A stretch of 64,000 bases of DNA from a bacterium. GTDB taxonomy: Bacteria; UBA8248. Position 1 is the first letter of the stretch; each line of letters opens with the position of its first letter. The position numbers and the translations under genes are program-made. The stretch covers positions 2,641,526 to 2,705,525 of the forward strand of contig OZ242260.1 in assembly GCA_965207065.1 (NCBI GenBank), in the 5' to 3' direction. Positions 13,390 to 58,454 of the stretch are shown here, piece by piece. The notes under the pieces were generated by a model. That model was not told the DNA's origin. It made no database searches and saw only the letters and a program-made list of their open reading frames with translations.

Positions 13390-13728
13390 CTAAGACTCCG
13401 GTAGTGCGAGCTGTTCGAGTTGGGAAATAAGTTGGGGGATGTCCTGTTGCACTGTTTCCCAAACGATATCCATATCGATATCATCGTAGGCATGGATCAT
13501 TCGATTACGCATACCCCGAATCTCGTTCCACGGAATTTCAGAGTTTTCATCTCGAAATGCAGATGAGATGCGCCCCGCCGCCTCACCGATAATTTCTATG
13601 CGGCGAACGACGGAATCTTGTAATTTCGTGTCGCGGAGGAATTCGTGTTGCATGACGCCTTCGACATAGGTTCGTGCCATCCGTGCTGAAGCTAGGATAT
13701 CCAGCAAATACTGAACGTCACGATCCAT
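13390..13728 (-). CDS. DUF86/HepT-like HEPN toxin
   Basis: LQDSVVRRIEIIGEAA, IRGMRNRMIHAYDDID (R-X4-H). Confidence 0.9.
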   Translation of the reverse strand: MDRDVQYLLDILASARMARTYVEGVMQHEFLRDTKLQDSVVRRIEIIGEAAGRISSAFRDENSEIPWNEIRGMRNRMIHAYDDIDMDIVWETVQQDIPQLISQLEQLALPES

Positions 13729-14029
13729 AAACGAGTTCCGCAGATTCGAGAATCGCCTTCCGGCGGATATAATTGGGGCTTCTCTCTATGCCGCGTCGGC
13801 TGACAAGATCGACCTCGCGACCGAATATGGATTTAAGTTCATCTTCCATACGAACCATGTCGAAGAGCGTATGGCGTGCATTCTCATCGAAGCTGACGAG
13901 GAGGTCGACGTCGCTCTCGGGCCCGAAGTCTTCGCGCAACGCCGAGCCGAATACGGCGAGTTGCGTGACTTGCCAGCGTTCGCAAAAGGCGGCGATCTCT
14001 TCTCGCGATGCCTCGACGTTCAGGCGCAT
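13718..14029 (-). CDS. MNT nucleotidyltransferase antitoxin
   Basis: LAVFGSALREDFGPESDVDLLV, FGREVDLV. The long N-terminal extension in the ORF track overlaps another gene and is not used. Confidence 0.9.
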   Translation of the reverse strand: MRLNVEASREEIAAFCERWQVTQLAVFGSALREDFGPESDVDLLVSFDENARHTLFDMVRMEDELKSIFGREVDLVSRRGIERSPNYIRRKAILESAELVYGS

Positions 14030-14115
14030 GATGAAACTCCCTGGAAACGGAGATTTCGGACAATGCGCGTATTTTCTCACAAACAACGCCCCGCGTCTCG
14101 CCCTGAAACGGGACC

Positions 14116-14544
14116 TTACGGCCGCTCCCAGTCGGCGACTCCGCCGGGCGTTACGCGGAAGAGGGGATGGGGCAGGGGAGCATCCACCGCCAGATATTTC
14201 CCGTATCGCTCCGGCGCGCGGGATTCGAGCTTTTTCATCAGATGCCGCCATTCGAAGTCGAGCTGGCCGCTCGTTACATCCAACTGAGCGGTAGTGCGGC
14301 TGCGGCCTATTTTCTCCGAGTCGAAACGATAACCCCGCTTTATGGATTCCGCGTATACGGCTCTCAGGTATTCGGCGATAAGGGTGGCAGGCCTGCCGCC
14401 TGCGCGGAAACGCTCCAGTTGGGGATGGCGGCGGTAGCCCTTCGTCTCGCCCGTCAGAACGGCCTGGGCGAGCAGGGCTTCCCTCCACAGGGCGACCAGC
14501 CCCCTGGCGTCCAGATATTCGGGATGCAGACTCCACAAGCGCAT
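14116..14544 (-). CDS. Pyrimidine-dimer DNA glycosylase / T4 endonuclease V-like protein
   Basis: MRLWSLHPEYLDARGLVALWREALLAQAVL..GYRRHPQL. Confidence 0.8.
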   Translation of the reverse strand: MRLWSLHPEYLDARGLVALWREALLAQAVLTGETKGYRRHPQLERFRAGGRPATLIAEYLRAVYAESIKRGYRFDSEKIGRSRTTAQLDVTSGQLDFEWRHLMKKLESRAPERYGKYLAVDAPLPHPLFRVTPGGVADWERP

Positions 14545-14594
14545 CGTTCATCGCTCCTCGGCGGCGGGAGCGGGTGCTGTTTCCGGCGTGCGGG

Positions 14595-15395
14595 CTATTT
14601 TTCCTTTCGCGGCTTTCCGTTGATGAACGCTTCCCGGACGTAGCGGACGACCGACCAGATATCCTTGTCATTCAGCAGGTGGCCGTAGGATTTCATGAAG
14701 TCGTATTTCTTAAGCTCCGTAACGTCGATGCGGCCGAGATTGATGTTCCAGAAGAGAAACCCGTCGTCGAAGCGCGCCATCTGCTCCTTCAGGTGATAGT
14801 TCATCGGCGGCGGCTGGATGTGGCTGATGAACGGCTTTTCGGGGTCCTGATCCTCCACGGGACGGGTCCCGTCCCCAAGGCCCTTTTTCCCGTGGCACTG
14901 GGAGCAGGCGTCGGCGAAGATTTTCCGGCTCTTCGCATCTTTCGGTTGTTCGCTTTTGCCGAAGCCGCGCACCCATTTGACGAGCTTCCTTATCTGAGCG
15001 TCTTCGAGCGCTTCGCCGAAGGAGGGCATGGCGGTGGGGACGCCGTTAATTACCTTGTGGCCCTTCGTCCGGTTTTTGAGCACGTTCATCTTGCCGAACT
15101 TGACGACGGAGAACATGTAGTCGTCCGTCATGCGCTTCATGTAGGGGCTGATGAACACCTGGGGTCTCGGCCTCACCGTCCGCCAGATTGGCCCCTTGCC
15201 GTCGCCCTTGACCCCGTGGCAGGAGAAGCAGATTTCCCCGTATATCTTCTTGCCCCGCCAGTAGTCCCCGCCGTTTTGTTTCGCCGTCTCGGGATTGGGC
15301 GGGATTCTCCTGGCCGCAAGGGAGGCGGGGGGTGCGATGAGACTCAAAGAGAGAGCAAGAACGATCCATACCCCCTTTTCCCTCATAAACTTCAT
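14595..15395 (-). CDS. Exported diheme c-type cytochrome
   Basis: Signal peptide; CFSCH and CSQCH; two internally similar class I domains with Met ligand candidates (AMPSF, FMKSY). Confidence 0.85.
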   Translation of the reverse strand: MKFMREKGVWIVLALSLSLIAPPASLAARRIPPNPETAKQNGGDYWRGKKIYGEICFSCHGVKGDGKGPIWRTVRPRPQVFISPYMKRMTDDYMFSVVKFGKMNVLKNRTKGHKVINGVPTAMPSFGEALEDAQIRKLVKWVRGFGKSEQPKDAKSRKIFADACSQCHGKKGLGDGTRPVEDQDPEKPFISHIQPPPMNYHLKEQMARFDDGFLFWNINLGRIDVTELKKYDFMKSYGHLLNDKDIWSVVRYVREAFINGKPRKEK

Positions 15396-15499
15396 TTCCT
15401 GTCCTCTTCCAGCGGTCTCGTCGATACGGGTTAGAGGGGCTTCTGAAACGCGGACGCGCGGGATGCCCACCCGATTATGTCGGCCAAGTCTCCGTTATT

Positions 15500-16498
15500 T
15501 TATTTCTTCGCGCAAGGATTTCTGGCGCACGGATTCTTGGCGGCGCACGGGTTTTTCGCTGCGCAGGGGTTCTTCGGCGCGCAGGGGTTGTTCGCACATG
15601 GGTTTTTGGCGGCGCATGGGTTGCTGGAAGCAGGCGGAATTTTTCCCGCGCAGGGATTCTTCGCAGCGGGCGGGCTTTGGGGTGCGCAAGGGTTCTTGGC
15701 GACGGGAGCATCCCCACCAGGAATTTTCGACTTGCCCGGATCGCTTACGCCGGGATTACCGCCACCGGCGACGGATTGCAGCGTTTTCATGAACCCCTTG
15801 CGCTTCGCCTCCCACTCGAGCATGCGCTTGTAGCGCGCGGGCGAGAGCGAAACCACATAAGTTTCCAGGTCCTTGTAGTCCTGAGATTTGGGGTCCATGG
15901 GCGGATTGCCGATGAACGCCGTGGCGCACCAGTCGTTGAACTGCCCGACGCTCACCACATGGTCCGCAGGGCTCAGGCGCGGGAAGTGCTCCGCCGCTCC
16001 GATGAGCGTGGGCACCGGAACGGGATATCTCGCGCCCGTTACGTCCACTACGGTGCCCCGGATGGTGCGTCCCCTGGGGTGGCAGCCCACGCAGCCGATG
16101 CTCCGGAAGATTTTCCTGCCCCGGGCGACGGCGTCCTTCACGCTTACGTCACGCTTCCGGGTGAAGGAATAAGGCGGATTCGTGATGCCCGCCGCCTTGC
16201 TCCCCGCCGGGGCCTTGCCGCCCGGAGAGGGGGTGAATGGTTTGACGATGCGCGGACTCTTCTCCGTCCTGGCGCAGGCGTTCTTCGCCGCGCATGGGTT
16301 TTTGGCCGCGCCCGGATTCTGGGCCGCGCATGGGTTACTCGGTGCGCAGGGATTCTGGGCTGCGCAAGGGTTTCCGGCGCACGGGTTCTTGGACGTGCAA
16401 GGATTCTTGGATTGATTCGCCGCATGGACAGAAATGACGGCCCATATCGAGACGCTCAGGAGCGCGCCGAGGAGGACGAACCTCGATTTTCTCAGCAT
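15500..16498 (-). CDS. Exported monoheme cytochrome c with SoxA/TsdA-like core flanked by Asn-Pro-Cys repeat arms
   Basis: Signal peptide; CVGCH at aa 136-140; LIGAAEHFPR...FNDWC(191)...YKDLETYVVSLS; 6 NPC before and 9 NPC after the core. Confidence 0.78.
   Translation of the reverse strand: MLRKSRFVLLGALLSVSIWAVISVHAANQSKNPCTSKNPCAGNPCAAQNPCAPSNPCAAQNPGAAKNPCAAKNACARTEKSPRIVKPFTPSPGGKAPAGSKAAGITNPPYSFTRKRDVSVKDAVARGRKIFRSIGCVGCHPRGRTIRGTVVDVTGARYPVPVPTLIGAAEHFPRLSPADHVVSVGQFNDWCATAFIGNPPMDPKSQDYKDLETYVVSLSPARYKRMLEWEAKRKGFMKTLQSVAGGGNPGVSDPGKSKIPGGDAPVAKNPCAPQSPPAAKNPCAGKIPPASSNPCAAKNPCANNPCAPKNPCAAKNPCAAKNPCARNPCAKK
15503..15697 (-). repeat. C-terminal (A/P)AKNPC repeat block, 15-18-bp units
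   Basis: 9 NPC plus 2 degenerate units in the last 65 aa. Confidence 0.9.
16271..16408 (-). repeat. N-terminal NPC repeat block
   Basis: 6 NPC plus NPG and NAC variants at aa 31-76. Confidence 0.9.
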
Positions 16499-16612: not shown

Positions 16613-17035
16613 CTAGGGGAGCAGCCGCATCCCCAGAACGGCGACGAACAGGGCGATAAATACGGCCAGAAACCCGCAGTAGGAGTGAATCTGCCTTAAA
16701 TCCTCGTTCCCCAGGTTTCGCCTCAGCCTACGGCCCAGATACGCCGTCGTCCAGAAAAGGCCGAGCGCCAGGGTGGCGAAATAGCTGTGCGCCGTCTCGT
16801 AGAGAGGGCCTTCTAGGGCGAAGCGCATGCCGCCAAGACCCAGGGCGTAGCCCACAGAGAAAAGAGCGATAAACCAACGCCCGAGCCGCATGTGCAGGCG
16901 GGCGACCCGCACCGTCTCGGGGCCGGCTCCTAACTTGCGCGAGCGCCTCACGCGCAGGCCGTTCGCCAGCGTGATCAGGCCGAGCGAGAGCGTCGCGATC
17001 TGAAAAGCCGGATGAATGTAGGCCGCCAAATTCAT
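16613..17035 (-). CDS. DUF4079-like 4-TM membrane protein, possibly cytochrome b561-like
   Basis: Four hydrophobic segments with His8, His48, His83 and His117. Confidence 0.65.
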   Translation of the reverse strand: MNLAAYIHPAFQIATLSLGLITLANGLRVRRSRKLGAGPETVRVARLHMRLGRWFIALFSVGYALGLGGMRFALEGPLYETAHSYFATLALGLFWTTAYLGRRLRRNLGNEDLRQIHSYCGFLAVFIALFVAVLGMRLLP

Positions 17036-17180
17036 GCGTTCGCGCTCCGGGGGGTCAAGAAACCTCGCGTTCATCTCCACCCCTGTTTACCTTGCCCGAT
17101 GGGCAGACGCAAAGCTATAGTAGCCGAAACGCGAATCCGGCCATCGGCCGCAGTCCCTTGAATTATCGAGTGAGGGGACC

Positions 17181-17975
17181 ATGAACATAGAAGACGTACG
17201 CGCCATCGCGCGCGGCAGCAGAGTATTCGATCTGGGCGTCGAGCTTTTTCCCGGAATGCCCCACGTGCCGCTGCACGGCCCGTTCGGGTTCTCGATGATC
17301 AGGGAACACGGCGACCACATGTATTCAGGCGGGGCGTGCTCGGCGGTTGAGGCGATTTTCTGCACCGGCCACACCGGCACGCACATCGACGCCCTGGGCC
17401 ACGTCGCAAAGGACATGAAGCTCTACGGCGGCCTGGACGTCGCCGAGCACCAGAGCAAGACGGAAGGCATGAAAGCCCACGGGGTCGAGACCGTAGCGCC
17501 CGTGGTGAGGCGCGGCGTGTTTATCGACGTGGCGGCTTACTTGAAAAAAGACGTTTTAGAGGCGGGCCGGCCCATCACGAAAGAAGAACTCGAAGCCGCC
17601 GCAGCCGCCCAGGGGGTCAAGGTGGAAGAGGGAGACGTCGTCCTGGTGCGAACGGGCCACATGCAAAACTGGCCGGGCCGGAATTATTATTTCCAGAAAG
17701 GCGGCGTGCCCGGAATCGACCTGGATGCCGCGAAATGGCTCTCGGATCAGGGAATCTTCATGGTCGGGAGTGATACCTTCGCGGTCGAGGTGCTGCCCGC
17801 CCCCACGATGCCGGTGCACTGCCACATGCTGGTGGACTGCGGCATCCACCTGCTCGAGGTGTCCGTGCTCGAGGAATTGAGCCAGGCGCGCGCCCATGAG
17901 TTTCTCTTCGTCTGCCTGCCGCTCAAGGTGCGCGGCGGCACGGGCTCGCCCGTCCGTCCCGTGGCCATCCTGTAA
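17181..17975 (+). CDS. Cyclase / kynurenine formamidase-family metallohydrolase
   Basis: HTGTHIDALGH, GDVVLVRTG, VGSDT, H..LVDCGIHLLE, LKVRGGTGSPVRPVA. Confidence 0.9.
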   Translation: MNIEDVRAIARGSRVFDLGVELFPGMPHVPLHGPFGFSMIREHGDHMYSGGACSAVEAIFCTGHTGTHIDALGHVAKDMKLYGGLDVAEHQSKTEGMKAHGVETVAPVVRRGVFIDVAAYLKKDVLEAGRPITKEELEAAAAAQGVKVEEGDVVLVRTGHMQNWPGRNYYFQKGGVPGIDLDAAKWLSDQGIFMVGSDTFAVEVLPAPTMPVHCHMLVDCGIHLLEVSVLEELSQARAHEFLFVCLPLKVRGGTGSPVRPVAIL

Positions 17976-18006
17976 ACCCACCTTTTCTGAATCCGGTGAG
18001 ATAGTC

Positions 18007-19254
18007 ATGCCCCGCGTGTTCGAGGACAGGGCCAAAGCGCTTCTGAATAGCGCGGGCGTGCGCGTCCCCAAGGGACACTCCGTGACGACGCCCTTAGAGG
18101 CGGCGGAGGCGGCGCGCGCCATCGGCGGCCCCGTGATGGTGAAGGCCCTGGTGCCCGCGGGAAAACGCGGCAAGGCGGGGGCGATCCTCGCTGCGGATAC
18201 GCCCGATGAGGCGAAGGAAGCGGCGCGGAAACTCCTGGGCCGTGTGGTGCATCATTTCCCCGTGAAGCGCCTGCTGGTGGAGGAGAGGGTCTCGATCGCG
18301 CAGGAGTGGTATCTCTCGGTCGCCTTCGACAGCGCATCGCGCGGGCCGCTCGTCATGTTCAGCACCGAGGGCGGCGTGGAGATCGAGTCGCTTTTAGAAG
18401 AAAACCCGGACGCTCTTAAACGGCTGGAAGTCGATATTCTGGAGGGACTCACCGAGGAGCGGTGCGTCTCCTTCCTGCGCGCGATGGGCGTGCACGGGGA
18501 GGGCCTCTACCGCGCGGCCATGGCGCTCGAGGCCTGCTACGCGCTTTTTCGCCGGAGCGAGGCGCGGGTACTGGAGGTGAATCCACTCGTCCTGACTGAT
18601 ACGGACGAAGTGATCGCCGCCGCGTGCGTTCTCGATCTGGACGCGGACGCCCTGTTCCGCCACGCAGACCTCAAAGAACTGCTCGATGATGACTCGGACG
18701 GCGGCTGGCGTCCGCCGACGCCCGTGGAGGCGAGGGTCGCGGAGATCGACGCCATGGTCCCTCCGTTCAATACGGCGCGCTTCACGGAAATCGATGGCGG
18801 GGAGATCGCCCTCATGTGGAGCGGGGGCGGGGGCGGCCTGTATTTGCTGGACACGATGGAGCGCCTGGGCGGCAAGCCCGCGACGGCGTTCGACATCACT
18901 CCGGGCCCGCTTGAGGAGAAGTATTTCGAGATCACCAAAGAGATTCTCGCGATGCCGAACGTGAAGGGCGCGCTCGCGGGCAGCAACATCACGAGTTTCT
19001 CGCGCGTTCAGCTCAAGGTCCGCGCCATCGCCCGCGCGGTCGAGGAGACGGGGGTCGACCTCGCGAAATTTCCCTTCATCGTGCGCTTCGCGGGCGCGGG
19101 CGGGGAGGAGGCCAGGGAGATCGCCGCAAGCTGTCCGGGCCTTCAGTATCTTGGGGATGAGGTGACGCTCGAAGAAGCCGCCGAGCGTATCATCGCCCAG
19201 GTCGAGGCTGTGAAGCGCGGGGAGTCGTGGACGAGTATAGGAGGCGCGCCTTGA
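18007..19254 (+). CDS. Succinyl-CoA synthetase beta-like ATP-grasp subunit (divergent)
   Basis: VMVKALVPAGKRGKAG, LLVEE, EVNPLV, LDADALFRH. Confidence 0.82.
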   Translation: MPRVFEDRAKALLNSAGVRVPKGHSVTTPLEAAEAARAIGGPVMVKALVPAGKRGKAGAILAADTPDEAKEAARKLLGRVVHHFPVKRLLVEERVSIAQEWYLSVAFDSASRGPLVMFSTEGGVEIESLLEENPDALKRLEVDILEGLTEERCVSFLRAMGVHGEGLYRAAMALEACYALFRRSEARVLEVNPLVLTDTDEVIAAACVLDLDADALFRHADLKELLDDDSDGGWRPPTPVEARVAEIDAMVPPFNTARFTEIDGGEIALMWSGGGGGLYLLDTMERLGGKPATAFDITPGPLEEKYFEITKEILAMPNVKGALAGSNITSFSRVQLKVRAIARAVEETGVDLAKFPFIVRFAGAGGEEAREIAASCPGLQYLGDEVTLEEAAERIIAQVEAVKRGESWTSIGGAP

Positions 19255-20168
19255 GCATTCTGGTTGACGAGACAACGCGCGTCGTCGTGGCGGGCATCAC
19301 CGGCTGGCAGGCGCGCGCCCACACCGGCTTCATGCGGGCGTACGGCACCCGCGTGGTGGCGGGCGTAGTGCCCGGCCGCGCGGGCGAGGATTGCGACGGC
19401 GTGCCCGTGTATGACTCGTTCGCCTCCGCTCTGGGTGAACACCCGGCGGACGCGGCCGTCCTGTTCGTGCCGGCCGCCGCAGCGGCGGAATCGGCCATCG
19501 AAGCGGCGGTGGCGGGCGTCGGGATGATTCTCGTGTGCGCCGAGGGCGTCCCGCAGCACGACGTGGCGCGGATGATCGCCCATGCACGGCGCGCAGGGGT
19601 GCGGCTCGTGGGTCCCAACAGCCAGGGGGTCATCAGTCCCGGACGCGCGAAGATGGGCGGCACGGGCGGCGATCTGCCCGTCACGAACCTCCTGTTCCGG
19701 CGCGGGCCGGTGGGCGTGCTGAGCAGAAGCGGGGGCATGGGCAGCGAGACCTGCTGGCTCCTGAGCCGCGAGGGAATCGGCCAGAGCACCTACGTGAGCG
19801 TGGGGGGAGACGCCATGGTGGGCGCGCCCTTCTCTGAACTCTTGCCCATGTTCCAAGCCGATCCGGATACGGAGTGCGTCGTCCTGTTCGGCGAGCCGGG
19901 CTCGTGCGCCGAAGAGGACGCGGCGCGCCTGATGGGCGAGGGGGGATTCACCAAGCCTGTGGTCGCCTTCATCGCGGGGATGGTGAACGAGTCCGCTCCC
20001 CAAGGTGTGAGCTTCGGCCACGCGGCGGCCATCATCGAGCGCGGCGAAGGCTCTCCCGCACGGAAAAAGGCGCTGTTGAGAGAGGCGGGGGCCGCTGTGG
20101 TGGAGGATATGCGCGAGATTCCAGACGCCGTGCGCGATGCCTTGGGCGCTGGATTTTTCGCTCCTTAG
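19251..20168 (+). CDS. Succinyl-CoA synthetase alpha-like CoA-binding subunit
   Basis: GITG, GPNSQG, SRSGGM, GGD, FGEPG, SFGHAAAI (phospho-His). TTG start after AGGAGG overlaps the beta stop. Confidence 0.85.
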   Translation: MSILVDETTRVVVAGITGWQARAHTGFMRAYGTRVVAGVVPGRAGEDCDGVPVYDSFASALGEHPADAAVLFVPAAAAAESAIEAAVAGVGMILVCAEGVPQHDVARMIAHARRAGVRLVGPNSQGVISPGRAKMGGTGGDLPVTNLLFRRGPVGVLSRSGGMGSETCWLLSREGIGQSTYVSVGGDAMVGAPFSELLPMFQADPDTECVVLFGEPGSCAEEDAARLMGEGGFTKPVVAFIAGMVNESAPQGVSFGHAAAIIERGEGSPARKKALLREAGAAVVEDMREIPDAVRDALGAGFFAP

Positions 20169-57953: not shown

Positions 57954-58064
57954 GCTGTCTGCGCCGCTTCGGGTGCTCTCTTGTATTTTCAATGAGAGAT
58001 GATGTGATTTGTGGAGCGCGCGATTCGGGAAGCGAAGACGCTCCCCATGAGGAGTTTGTGGACG

Positions 58065-58454
58065 ATGAACAGGGCGTTGGCGGCGGGGCTTTTTCTCATA
58101 GCGGGGTTTGGGTTGATCGTGACGTTGACGAAAAGGCCCGAGCCGCCGGGACGGGTTCCCGCAACCGAGGATATGGCGCAGATCAAGAAGGGGAAATCGC
58201 TGTTCTCGCGCAACTGCATGCGCTGCCACGGGCCCGAAGCCAAGGGTTCGCGAATCGGGCCGCCGCTGGTGCACAAGGTTTACGAACCCTCCCACCACGG
58301 GGACGCCGCGTTCTTCATGGCCGTTTCGCGCGGGGTGAGGAGCCACCACTGGAAGTTCGGCGACATGCAGCCCGTGCCGGGTGTGAAACCCGAGGATGTG
58401 GCCCTGATCGTGCAATACGTGCGCTGGCTGCAGCGGAAGGCCGGTATTTTTTAG
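58065..58454 (+). CDS. Monoheme c-type cytochrome
   Basis: N-terminal anchor, CMRCH, HHGDAAF..GVRSHHWKFGDM; start uncertain (58011, 58047 or 58065). Confidence 0.85.
   Translation: MNRALAAGLFLIAGFGLIVTLTKRPEPPGRVPATEDMAQIKKGKSLFSRNCMRCHGPEAKGSRIGPPLVHKVYEPSHHGDAAFFMAVSRGVRSHHWKFGDMQPVPGVKPEDVALIVQYVRWLQRKAGIF

Follow-up and report, generated by a model that had tools for sequence, protein, structure and literature searches.

A SoxA/TsdA-superfamily cytochrome c with two Asn-Pro-Cys repeat arms, the origin of its two-arm form by gene fusion and a possible role in periplasmic thiol chemistry

Introduction

To our knowledge, c-type hemes ligated by histidine and cysteine are rare, and the only ones that are understood, those of SoxAX and TsdA, make or break sulfur-sulfur bonds. 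The gene that concerns us lies in a 64,000-nucleotide stretch of a bacterial contig (GenBank OZ242260.1, positions 2,641,526 to 2,705,525; hereafter the window). It encodes an exported monoheme cytochrome c whose heme domain is related to these enzymes and is flanked on both sides by arms built from the tripeptide Asn-Pro-Cys (NPC). Every characterised SoxA-family enzyme carries out sulfur-sulfur chemistry: a sulfur nucleophile is joined oxidatively to a thiolate by way of a covalent adduct at the ligand Cys, and thiol-disulfide exchange then follows (PMC4423706, PMC6879331). The axial ligands of the catalytic TsdA heme are His53 and Cys96 (PMC6879331). An Arg four residues before the ligand Cys (position -4; TsdA Arg119 in precursor numbering) does not vary in TsdA and SoxA, and a Ser four residues after it (position +4; Ser127) is invariant in TsdA (PMC4423706).

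The heme domain of the window protein is of a known superfamily. What is new is the NPC arms, which have not been described, and the two-arm form found here, which was made by gene fusion. From the analysis presented below we favour, tentatively and at somewhat less than even confidence, a reading in which the heme-thiolate centre may make or break sulfur-sulfur bonds on the Cys residues of the arms.

A SoxA/TsdA-type heme domain between two repeat arms

The open reading frame (ORF) contains 19 Cys residues, of which two bind heme, one is C191 and 16 are in the arms. Exact NPC units number six at residues 32-69 and nine at residues 269-329. These 15 units compare with 0.17 expected from the composition of the protein itself, and no other ORF of the window has even two. 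A single heme motif, CVGCH, occupies residues 136-140, and C191 stands in the context GQFNDWC. The original prediction, made from the letters of the DNA, had listed a signal peptide, six NPC units, one CVGCH, nine further units and about 16 extra Cys, and inspection and counting bear these out.

Each of the four Pro codons (4/4/4/3) and each of the two Asn codons (10/5) occurs in the 15 units, and the 18-nt DNA repeats that underlie them are only 69-83% alike. The tripeptide is therefore kept by selection at the protein level, and is not the product of recent duplication or slippage or an artefact of frame. The reading frame is also fixed by its continuity with a core that is conserved in 26 homologs. 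Short metatranscriptome contigs, 95-100% identical, map within the gene and provide weak evidence of its transcription. A scan for promoters and terminators gave nothing exceeding the shuffled expectation.

Several lines of evidence place the core in the SoxA/TsdA superfamily. By itself the window protein scores 15.3 bits against PF21342 (cut-off 27; E = 0.02) and 15.8 bits against the SoxA model TIGR04484 (cut-off 110), in both cases over residues 165-219. The close family of the core comprises 26 proteins from 24 species-level loci, all in Nitrospinota-type metagenome-assembled genomes (MAGs), one of which is labelled Tectomicrobia. Searches of the PDB with the sequence directly, or with the profile of this close family (A2), matched only a generic heme-binding helix, that of CCP, hydrazine synthase gamma and NorC, and brought up no SoxA or TsdA; a deeper profile was therefore needed. 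An exhaustive search with the A2 profile connects the close family to small periplasmic cytochromes that carry PF21342 (E = 1e-10 to 1e-23), and direct comparison of the A2 and A3 profiles with hhalign gives E = 8.7e-4 at a probability of 23%. A search with the A6 profile of the parent family brings together 378 proteins, with E values of at most 1e-10 and a best value of about 1e-47; among the matches listed, every parent-family protein carries PF21342.

The deeper profile (A4), a 54-sequence alignment headed by the window core, matches in the PDB the SoxA structures 1H31_A (4.4e-15, both heme domains) and 2C1D_A (6.9e-13) and the TsdA structure 4WQ7_A (1.1e-11). An AlphaFold (AF2) model of the core made from a deeper alignment has a pLDDT of 94.8 and a pTM of 0.89; an earlier run on a shallow alignment of 22 sequences reached a pLDDT of 48.8 and was discarded. 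Foldseek ranks TsdA and TsdBA in places 1-8 of the PDB (probability 1.00, TMq 0.54-0.62, E about 5e-3), and bacterial peroxidases and SoxA below them. The core is thus supported as a cysteine-ligated cytochrome c domain of the SoxA/TsdA superfamily, the kinship that had been proposed for it at the outset.

The predicted heme ligands

Only C136, C139, H140, P173 and C191 are invariant across the 54 sequences. The invariant Cys column of the A4 alignment coincides with TsdA C96 and with SoxA C114/C222, and the His of the CxxCH motif with TsdA H53. We take C114 and C222 to be heme ligands of SoxA, and its heme-1 domain to be distinct from its catalytic domain, following in part the structure reported by Bamford et al. 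(2002). H171, M201 and M226 are constant inside the Nitrospinota clade and not beyond it, M201 being Leu in most superfamily members, which leaves C191 as the only conserved candidate for the sixth ligand. This pattern strongly predicts ligation of the heme by His140 and Cys191. The placing of C191 at the position of the SoxA/TsdA ligand Cys, which had been read from the sequence, is borne out by both its invariance and its alignment. Directly after the heme motif a cationic motif, CH-PRGRT, is invariant in the clade.

The NPC arm as a module

A search with pure arm sequence finds 322 proteins in Gammaproteobacteria, Methylomirabilales, Tectimicrobiota, Acidobacteria, Deltaproteobacteria and Nitrospinae. 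The commonest partner of the arms is a SoxA-type cytochrome, which accounts for 10 of the 13 matches having any Pfam domain. Other types are a signal peptide followed by an NPC-only peptide of 80-110 residues, a small beta-barrel scaffold between arms (the beta-core), one TPR protein and one peroxiredoxin-type AhpC/TSA protein (P0113). The beta-core sequence does not match Pfam or the PDB significantly, and none of its Cys, His or Met residues is conserved. NPC arms are borne by two or three cytochrome clades and by small beta-barrels, also form peptides that stand alone, and are spread over at least five phyla. Copy number is plastic, with 2-31 units in C-terminal arms and 4-44 in carriers; the survey of it that the original prediction had suggested gives an overall range of 2-44, highly variable between loci.

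Asn-Pro precedes 95-97% of about 1400 arm Cys in 122 proteins. The spacers vary (none, AA, AK, GG or AAK), as do the distances between Cys residues (3, 5, 6, 7 or 8), and the conserved unit is therefore the tripeptide and not a structural period. As a sequence pattern, NPC appears to suit a role in recognition or presentation better than that of a generic sponge rich in Cys. The last residues of the arms are KK or RK, and those of the window protein are Lys-rich and predicted to be disordered. In a neighbour-joining tree (no bootstrap), arm-less relatives separate the Nitrospinota clade from the sister NPC clade, which suggests that arms were gained on more than one occasion. The NPC arm is a selected, transferable module.

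The motif has no entry in Pfam or NCBIfam and was not found in full-text literature searches, which agrees with the initial statement that no function is assigned to this architecture. CefA, a ribosomally synthesized and post-translationally modified peptide (RiPP) with Cys at every fifth position (NF038108, cut-off 30 bits), was considered and rejected as a compositional resemblance: it scores 16.2 bits for the 44-copy beta-protein and 6.9 bits for a 20-copy arm, and does not match either arm of the window protein. The window protein likewise has no GGCGG motif of SoxY in its arms and no SoxY or SoxZ match in Pfam or NCBIfam, and none of its NPC units contains the FGE substrate motif C-x-P/A-x-R (Arg at +4).

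Operon context and fusion origin

The window was compared with 27 related loci (24 species-level loci and L001-L003, two of which duplicate others). The gene order is a cyclase on the opposite strand, a DUF4079 gene, in some loci a beta-core NPC protein, the NPC cytochrome, and a diheme cytochrome c. Fourteen loci have the separate beta-core carrier, and their cytochrome has no N-terminal arm. In the carrier-less loci (the window and 12 others) the cytochrome has this arm, with the exception of L005, where the ORF is N-terminally truncated. The leader and N-terminal arm of the window protein are identical at 19 of 30 positions to the N-terminus of the beta-core protein of L009 (score 94), whereas the leader of L009's own cytochrome scores 20, and residues 101-134 align with the N-terminal end of the mature unfused cytochrome. 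The two-arm window protein is therefore a fusion, in which the leader and first arm of a carrier were joined to a mature cytochrome with its C-terminal arm and the beta-barrel was lost. The NPC counts of adjacent carrier and cytochrome genes co-vary (rho = 0.82, n = 12, the loci not being phylogenetically independent).

The diheme gene lies directly downstream in 25 of the 27 related loci and is missing only in L027 and L028. In the window its likely true start is M26 at 15395, which gives a protein of 266 residues, as in the homologs. Sequence does not support the idea that it is TsdB-like, its best PDB relatives being generic diheme and CcoP-type cytochromes and not TsdB or SoxX. The window cytochrome polypeptide itself is monoheme. 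The monoheme and diheme pair also occurs in arm-less relatives (L114, L115), and is therefore the ancestral unit; kept even without arms, it is the layout of an enzyme and its electron acceptor. The DUF4079 gene is found upstream in 25 of the 27 loci, and in the window its likely true start is M16 at 17035. Four near-invariant His residues and a weak b561 match suggest that its product is a di-heme-b membrane protein; the full-text searches brought up a single passing mention of DUF4079. MNIO/DUF692 and sox genes, which the original prediction had named as possible neighbours, were searched for in all the neighbourhoods examined and were not found, nor were radical-SAM genes near NPC loci in these neighbourhoods.

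Sister and parent families

A sister family of two-arm cytochromes has 512 relatives in metagenomes. Arms stand on both sides in 71 of its 83 sampled loci, with up to 29 + 15 units; examples are Motiliproteus L004 (18 + 9 units), L029 and L030. Its partners were counted from BLAST neighbour clusters, regex-based counts, which under-count, being left unused. The recurrent neighbours are DUF6969 (21 loci), YeeE/YedE Sulf_transp (18), DUF302 (14), a stand-alone NPC peptide directly upstream of the cytochrome (13), an NrfA/ExtKL-like pentaheme cytochrome (12 loci by neighbour clusters; 24 and L116/L117 by whole-locus phmmer), an extracytoplasmic function (ECF) sigma factor with a zf-HC2 anti-sigma factor (10), a cupredoxin-like protein of 150 residues (9) and DsbD_TM/CcdA (5). 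The cupredoxin-like protein is uncharacterised and has the motif Y-x-C-P-L-N-x-T-P-D-Y (loci L004, L030/L031 and the 80 metagenome loci L032-L111).

A Methylomirabilales MAG holds an extended NPC cluster (L117:550-10020). It comprises genes for DsbD_TM, a zf-HC2 anti-sigma factor, an ECF sigma factor, a truncated homolog of the window cytochrome (p121), a diheme cytochrome, a beta-core NPC protein, a 10-copy NPC peptide, a multiheme cytochrome, an FGE-like protein and a DUF3179-like protein, the last of which recurs in 20 loci. Many arm-less relatives among the parent-family proteins P0157-P0193 have Met-rich N-terminal flanks, for example DGMDKMKMQMMENMKKVMSM.

Proposed mechanism

In the reading that we favour, the window protein would be a periplasmic cytochrome with a single heme attached to C136 and C139, H140 as its proximal ligand and the thiolate of C191 as its distal one. 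In the manner of SoxAX and TsdA, C191 would leave the iron and form a covalent sulfur-sulfur adduct, the heme taking up two electrons. The adduct would then be resolved by thiol-disulfide exchange with acceptor thiols, which would be the NPC Cys of the protein's own arms and, in related genomes, also those of the adjacent beta-barrel NPC carrier. The arms would thus act as a built-in (cis) counterpart, in many copies, of the swinging arm of SoxY. Electrons would exit, or enter in the reverse reaction, via the diheme cytochrome c and possibly the four-His DUF4079 protein. Candidate sulfur partners are sulfide or polysulfide, which would yield persulfides, and a second arm Cys, which would yield a disulfide. 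Thiosulfate is an unlikely substrate because the Arg of the catalytic SoxA/TsdA sites is missing.

The role of acceptor thiols is suggested for the arm Cys by the conserved ligand Cys, the strictness of NPC, the carriers that adjoin the cytochrome or are fused to it in several phyla, and the conserved electron-transfer partner. The mechanism is further favoured by the prevalence of SoxA-type cytochromes as the main globular partner of NPC arms, by NPC-only carriers that adjoin cytochrome genes, and by the YeeE/YedE sulfur transporters near 18 sister loci; sulfur import by SoxT proteins, which are YeeE-like, takes place downstream of the periplasmic carriers of the Sox system (PMC11582611). A broader proposal is that NPC arms are unrecognised poly-thiol swinging arms and that, with dedicated SoxA-superfamily heme-thiolate cytochromes, they would make up a new redox system for periplasmic thiols and sulfur, spread over five phyla or more, whose enzyme and carrier are in some cases fused, as in the window protein. 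We hold it possible, with slightly less assurance than the mechanism itself.

Several findings weigh against the mechanism. The catalytic Arg at -4 is absent from the window protein, which has F187 there, and the TsdA-specific Ser at +4 is replaced by F195, invariant within the clade. The residue at -4 is Phe (23) or Met (5) in the Nitrospinota loci and Met in most members of the parent and sister families, and the SoxA heme-1 domain likewise has Met at this position (M-I-N-A-C114). In its sequence the core seems to resemble this non-catalytic domain more closely than a proven active site. Judged from the residues at -4 and +4, the pocket beside C191 (F187, W190, F195) would be hydrophobic and not anion-binding. 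The His/Cys-ligated catalytic heme domain of the original prediction therefore stands in part: alignment supports the predicted Cys ligand, whereas TsdA-like catalysis, with Phe in the place of Arg, is at most a possibility. The arms have decayed to NPR or NPG in L009, L027 and L028, in which C191 is retained, and are thus not essential to the core. There are no soxB, soxX, soxY or soxZ genes in the window cluster, the 27 Nitrospinota loci or the recurrent neighbours of the sister family; it is their absence from the Nitrospinota cluster that counts here, together with that of YeeE genes from the same cluster. No reductase is found in the Nitrospinota operon, though free periplasmic thiols need protection. 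Finally, 16 of 25 arm-less parent-family proteins have Met-rich flanks (at least 15% Met; median 19%). Flanks rich in sulfur thus recur in the superfamily, with Met in some clades and Cys in others, and soft-metal binding or the scavenging of oxidants explains the Met-rich ones more readily than sulfur carriage does.

Alternative explanations

Metal sponge, sulfur-carrying arm and substrate of modification, the three roles that the original prediction gave for the tails, are all still candidates. The main rival to the mechanism above, unlikely although with several points in its favour, is that the arms bind soft metals (Cu(I), possibly Hg, Cd, Zn or Ag) as a sponge or chaperone, and that the heme domain senses the metal or changes its redox state. 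The arms offer sixteen flexible thiols beside Lys, and in metallothioneins too thiols are juxtaposed with Lys; the strict Asn-Pro before Cys and the lack of CxC or CxxC clusters are nevertheless unlike known metallothioneins. The range of copy number fits a capacity function. The Met-rich flanks of the arm-less relatives resemble the periplasmic Cu(I) 'Mets motifs', so that soft-ligand flanks recur in the superfamily, but periplasmic Cu(I) sites are usually made of Met and His and not of Cys. Genes associated with this explanation are a Cox11/CtaG gene beside the NPC cytochrome in L029, a CusF-Redoxin fusion near the parent-family member L112 and the recurrent pairs of ECF sigma and zf-HC2 anti-sigma factors, and one beta-core relative has weak CusF_Ec and DUF5666 matches. 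On the other hand, cop, cus, multicopper-oxidase, Sco and PCuAC genes are absent from the recurrent neighbours in the 27 + 83 loci, the beta-core is without conserved metal-binding residues (Cys, His, Met), and a His/Cys heme is unnecessary for a sponge.

It is improbable that the arms are a periplasmic thiol/disulfide buffer or sacrificial antioxidant, re-reduced by the heme-thiolate domain with electrons from DUF4079 and the diheme cytochrome. Enzymes of the TsdA type work in both directions (PMC6879331) and can run as tetrathionate reductases. NPC arms are found on the peroxiredoxin-type protein P0113, TlpA-like and DsbD_TM/CcdA genes adjoin NPC clusters, the Met-rich flanks of relatives are also oxidisable, and Nitrospina gracilis is without superoxide dismutase and catalase (PMC3578206). 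The chemistry of such a buffer overlaps with that of the adduct mechanism, however, and the two are inseparable by sequence; the Nitrospinota operon contains no reductase to serve it, and a low-potential supply by electron donors is unsupported.

Modification of the NPC Cys by RiPP-like or FGE-like enzymes, so that the mature arms are modified, is very improbable. The strictness of NPC resembles that of a recognition motif, and enzymes of the FGE, EgtB and OvoA family act on Cys thiols. Of the 14 Nitrospinota loci with a separate carrier, 11 have a gene of the FGE-sulfatase fold directly after the diheme gene (L001:4854-5609, L014, L015, L018, L020-L026). The gene is also found in seven sister loci and at the loci L116 (Tectimicrobiota) and L117 (Methylomirabilales), but is absent throughout the 64-kb window and from all loci of the fused subclade. 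The FGE-like proteins of the relatives are without the FGE catalytic Cys pair and fall far under the EgtB, SenA and GldK cut-offs, NPC mismatches CxPxR, neither MNIO/DUF692 nor radical-SAM genes are nearby, and the CefA match is sub-threshold.

Least probable is an ordinary electron-transfer cytochrome with His/Met201 ligation and tails that are tethers or neutral: M201 and M226 do not vary inside the Nitrospinota clade, some lineages have decayed arms and repeat arrays expand and contract easily, but M201 is mostly Leu in the superfamily while C191 is invariant, and NPC is kept with diverse synonymous codons, across phyla and on unrelated scaffolds.

Features of the window

Table 1. Coordinates of the NPC cytochrome gene, its parts and its operon neighbours, in positions of the window.
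Feature	Position	Strand	Remarks
Whole ORF, exported NPC-armed monoheme cytochrome c	15500..16498	-	ATG start, 332 aa; stop codon 15500-15502; 26 homologs
Sec-type signal peptide, residues 1-26 (MLRKSR / hydrophobic / VHA, cleavage, AN)	16421..16498	-	By inspection
N-terminal arm, residues 27-76: 6 NPC and degenerate NPG61, NAC73	16271..16420	-	
Pro/Gly/Lys-rich linker, residues 77-111, holding the fusion junction	16166..16270	-	
SoxA/TsdA-type cytochrome c core, residues 112-235	15794..16165	-	AF2, Foldseek, profile against PDB
Heme attachment motif C136-V-G-C139-H140	16079..16093	-	Invariant in 54-sequence alignment
C191 codon, predicted distal thiolate ligand	15926..15928	-	Invariant column; aligned with TsdA C96, SoxA C114/C222
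Gly/Pro-rich linker, residues 236-266	15701..15793	-	
C-terminal arm, residues 267-332: 9 NPC, KK at end	15503..15700	-	
Downstream diheme class I cytochrome c (CFSCH, CSQCH)	14595..15470	-	Pfam Cytochrome_CBB3/Cytochrom_C
Upstream DUF4079 membrane protein, near-invariant H23, H63, H98, H132	16613..17080	-	Pfam DUF4079 1e-12, Cytochrom_B561 2e-5

The repeat arrays of the cytochrome gene open spurious long ORFs in other frames and on the opposite strand, at 15477-15833 (+) and 16182-16415 (+) (GFLAAHGFF..., RKPLRSQ...). The public homologs P0010, P0022, P0025, P0026 and P0155 are among those that are frameshifted inside or near the arrays or have spurious frames. Automated gene calls for the NPC-cytochrome family are therefore error-prone.

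Downstream of the operon, between the diheme gene and a toxin-antitoxin pair, is an ORF of 142 residues (14116-14544, -) that is syntenic with the Pyr_excise gene (pyrimidine-dimer DNA glycosylase) of L003. The toxin-antitoxin pair, of HepT-like/MNT type, occupies 13390-13728 (-) and about 13718-14030 (-) by synteny with L003 (PF01934, PF01909); the mechanical 317-residue ORF at 13718-14671 is over-extended. The cluster is flanked by ATP-grasp_2/CoA-ligase genes at 17896-20168 (+), ATP-citrate-lyase or succinyl-CoA-synthetase-like by L003 synteny, which would fit an autotroph of the Nitrospinota type. The only other open frame of the window with at least 100 codons and a CxxCH motif is at 58008-58451 (+; 148 codons). 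All sampled words (100%) of window positions 15700-16300 are present in sequencing runs labelled with host organisms and some in a sponge metagenome, which suggests that the window comes from a sponge-associated symbiont.

Comparison with known systems

The analysis defines a large uncharacterised branch of the SoxA/TsdA superfamily, of which the 378 parent-family proteins and the 512 sister-family relatives in metagenomes are members. Whole clades of the branch have gained arms of up to 31-44 NPC units. If the arms are substrates or carriers, they would provide a self-contained alternative to the logic of SoxAX and SoxYZ in organisms that are not regarded as sulfur oxidisers, namely the marine Nitrospinota nitrite oxidisers and sponge symbionts. 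If they bind metals, the protein would be a new heme-linked device for handling metals in the periplasm. The window protein is small and soluble.

The closest structural match to the core is the heme-1 domain of TsdA from Allochromatium vinosum (4WQ7; probability 1.00, TMq 0.60-0.62), of which residues 39-127 are matched by profile at 1.1e-11; an FP motif is common to both. TsdA carries two hemes and a fused domain for electron transfer, lacks Cys-rich arms and uses free thiosulfate, whereas the window protein is monoheme and armed, with Phe in place of both the active-site Arg (-4) and Ser (+4) of TsdA. The best sequence-profile match is SoxA of the SoxAX complex of Rhodovulum sulfidophilum (1H31), whose heme-1 is His/Cys ligated and has Met at -4, like the relatives of the window protein. 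SoxA works with SoxX and a separate SoxYZ encoded in a sox operon, and none of these is present at the NPC cytochrome locus.

The arms invite comparison with two further groups. Periplasmic metal sponges of the PcoE/SilE type, rich in Met and His, and bufferins, RiPP metallophores with a signal peptide, are exported, disordered and rich in sulfur ligands, as the NPC arms are. Their sequences are not similar to that of the window protein, which has no CxC/CxxC or Met motif and no MNIO/DUF692 partner and whose NPC arms are borne on a heme enzyme. Cytochromes of identical architecture are the NPC-armed SoxA-type proteins of Motiliproteus, Amphritea, Halopseudomonas and metagenomes (P0038-P0138), which are uncharacterised, one being annotated as 'DUF1924 domain-containing'; their cores are 14-23% identical to that of the window protein and their genes have other neighbours.

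The nearest functional parallel for the arms is that of SoxY, a flexible peptide that offers a reactive Cys to a heme-thiolate enzyme of the SoxA family, and the likeness is one of analogy and not of homology. SoxY has a single C-terminal GGCGG and a SoxZ partner, whereas the NPC units are present in many copies, without SoxZ, and in cis on the cytochrome or on a beta-barrel.

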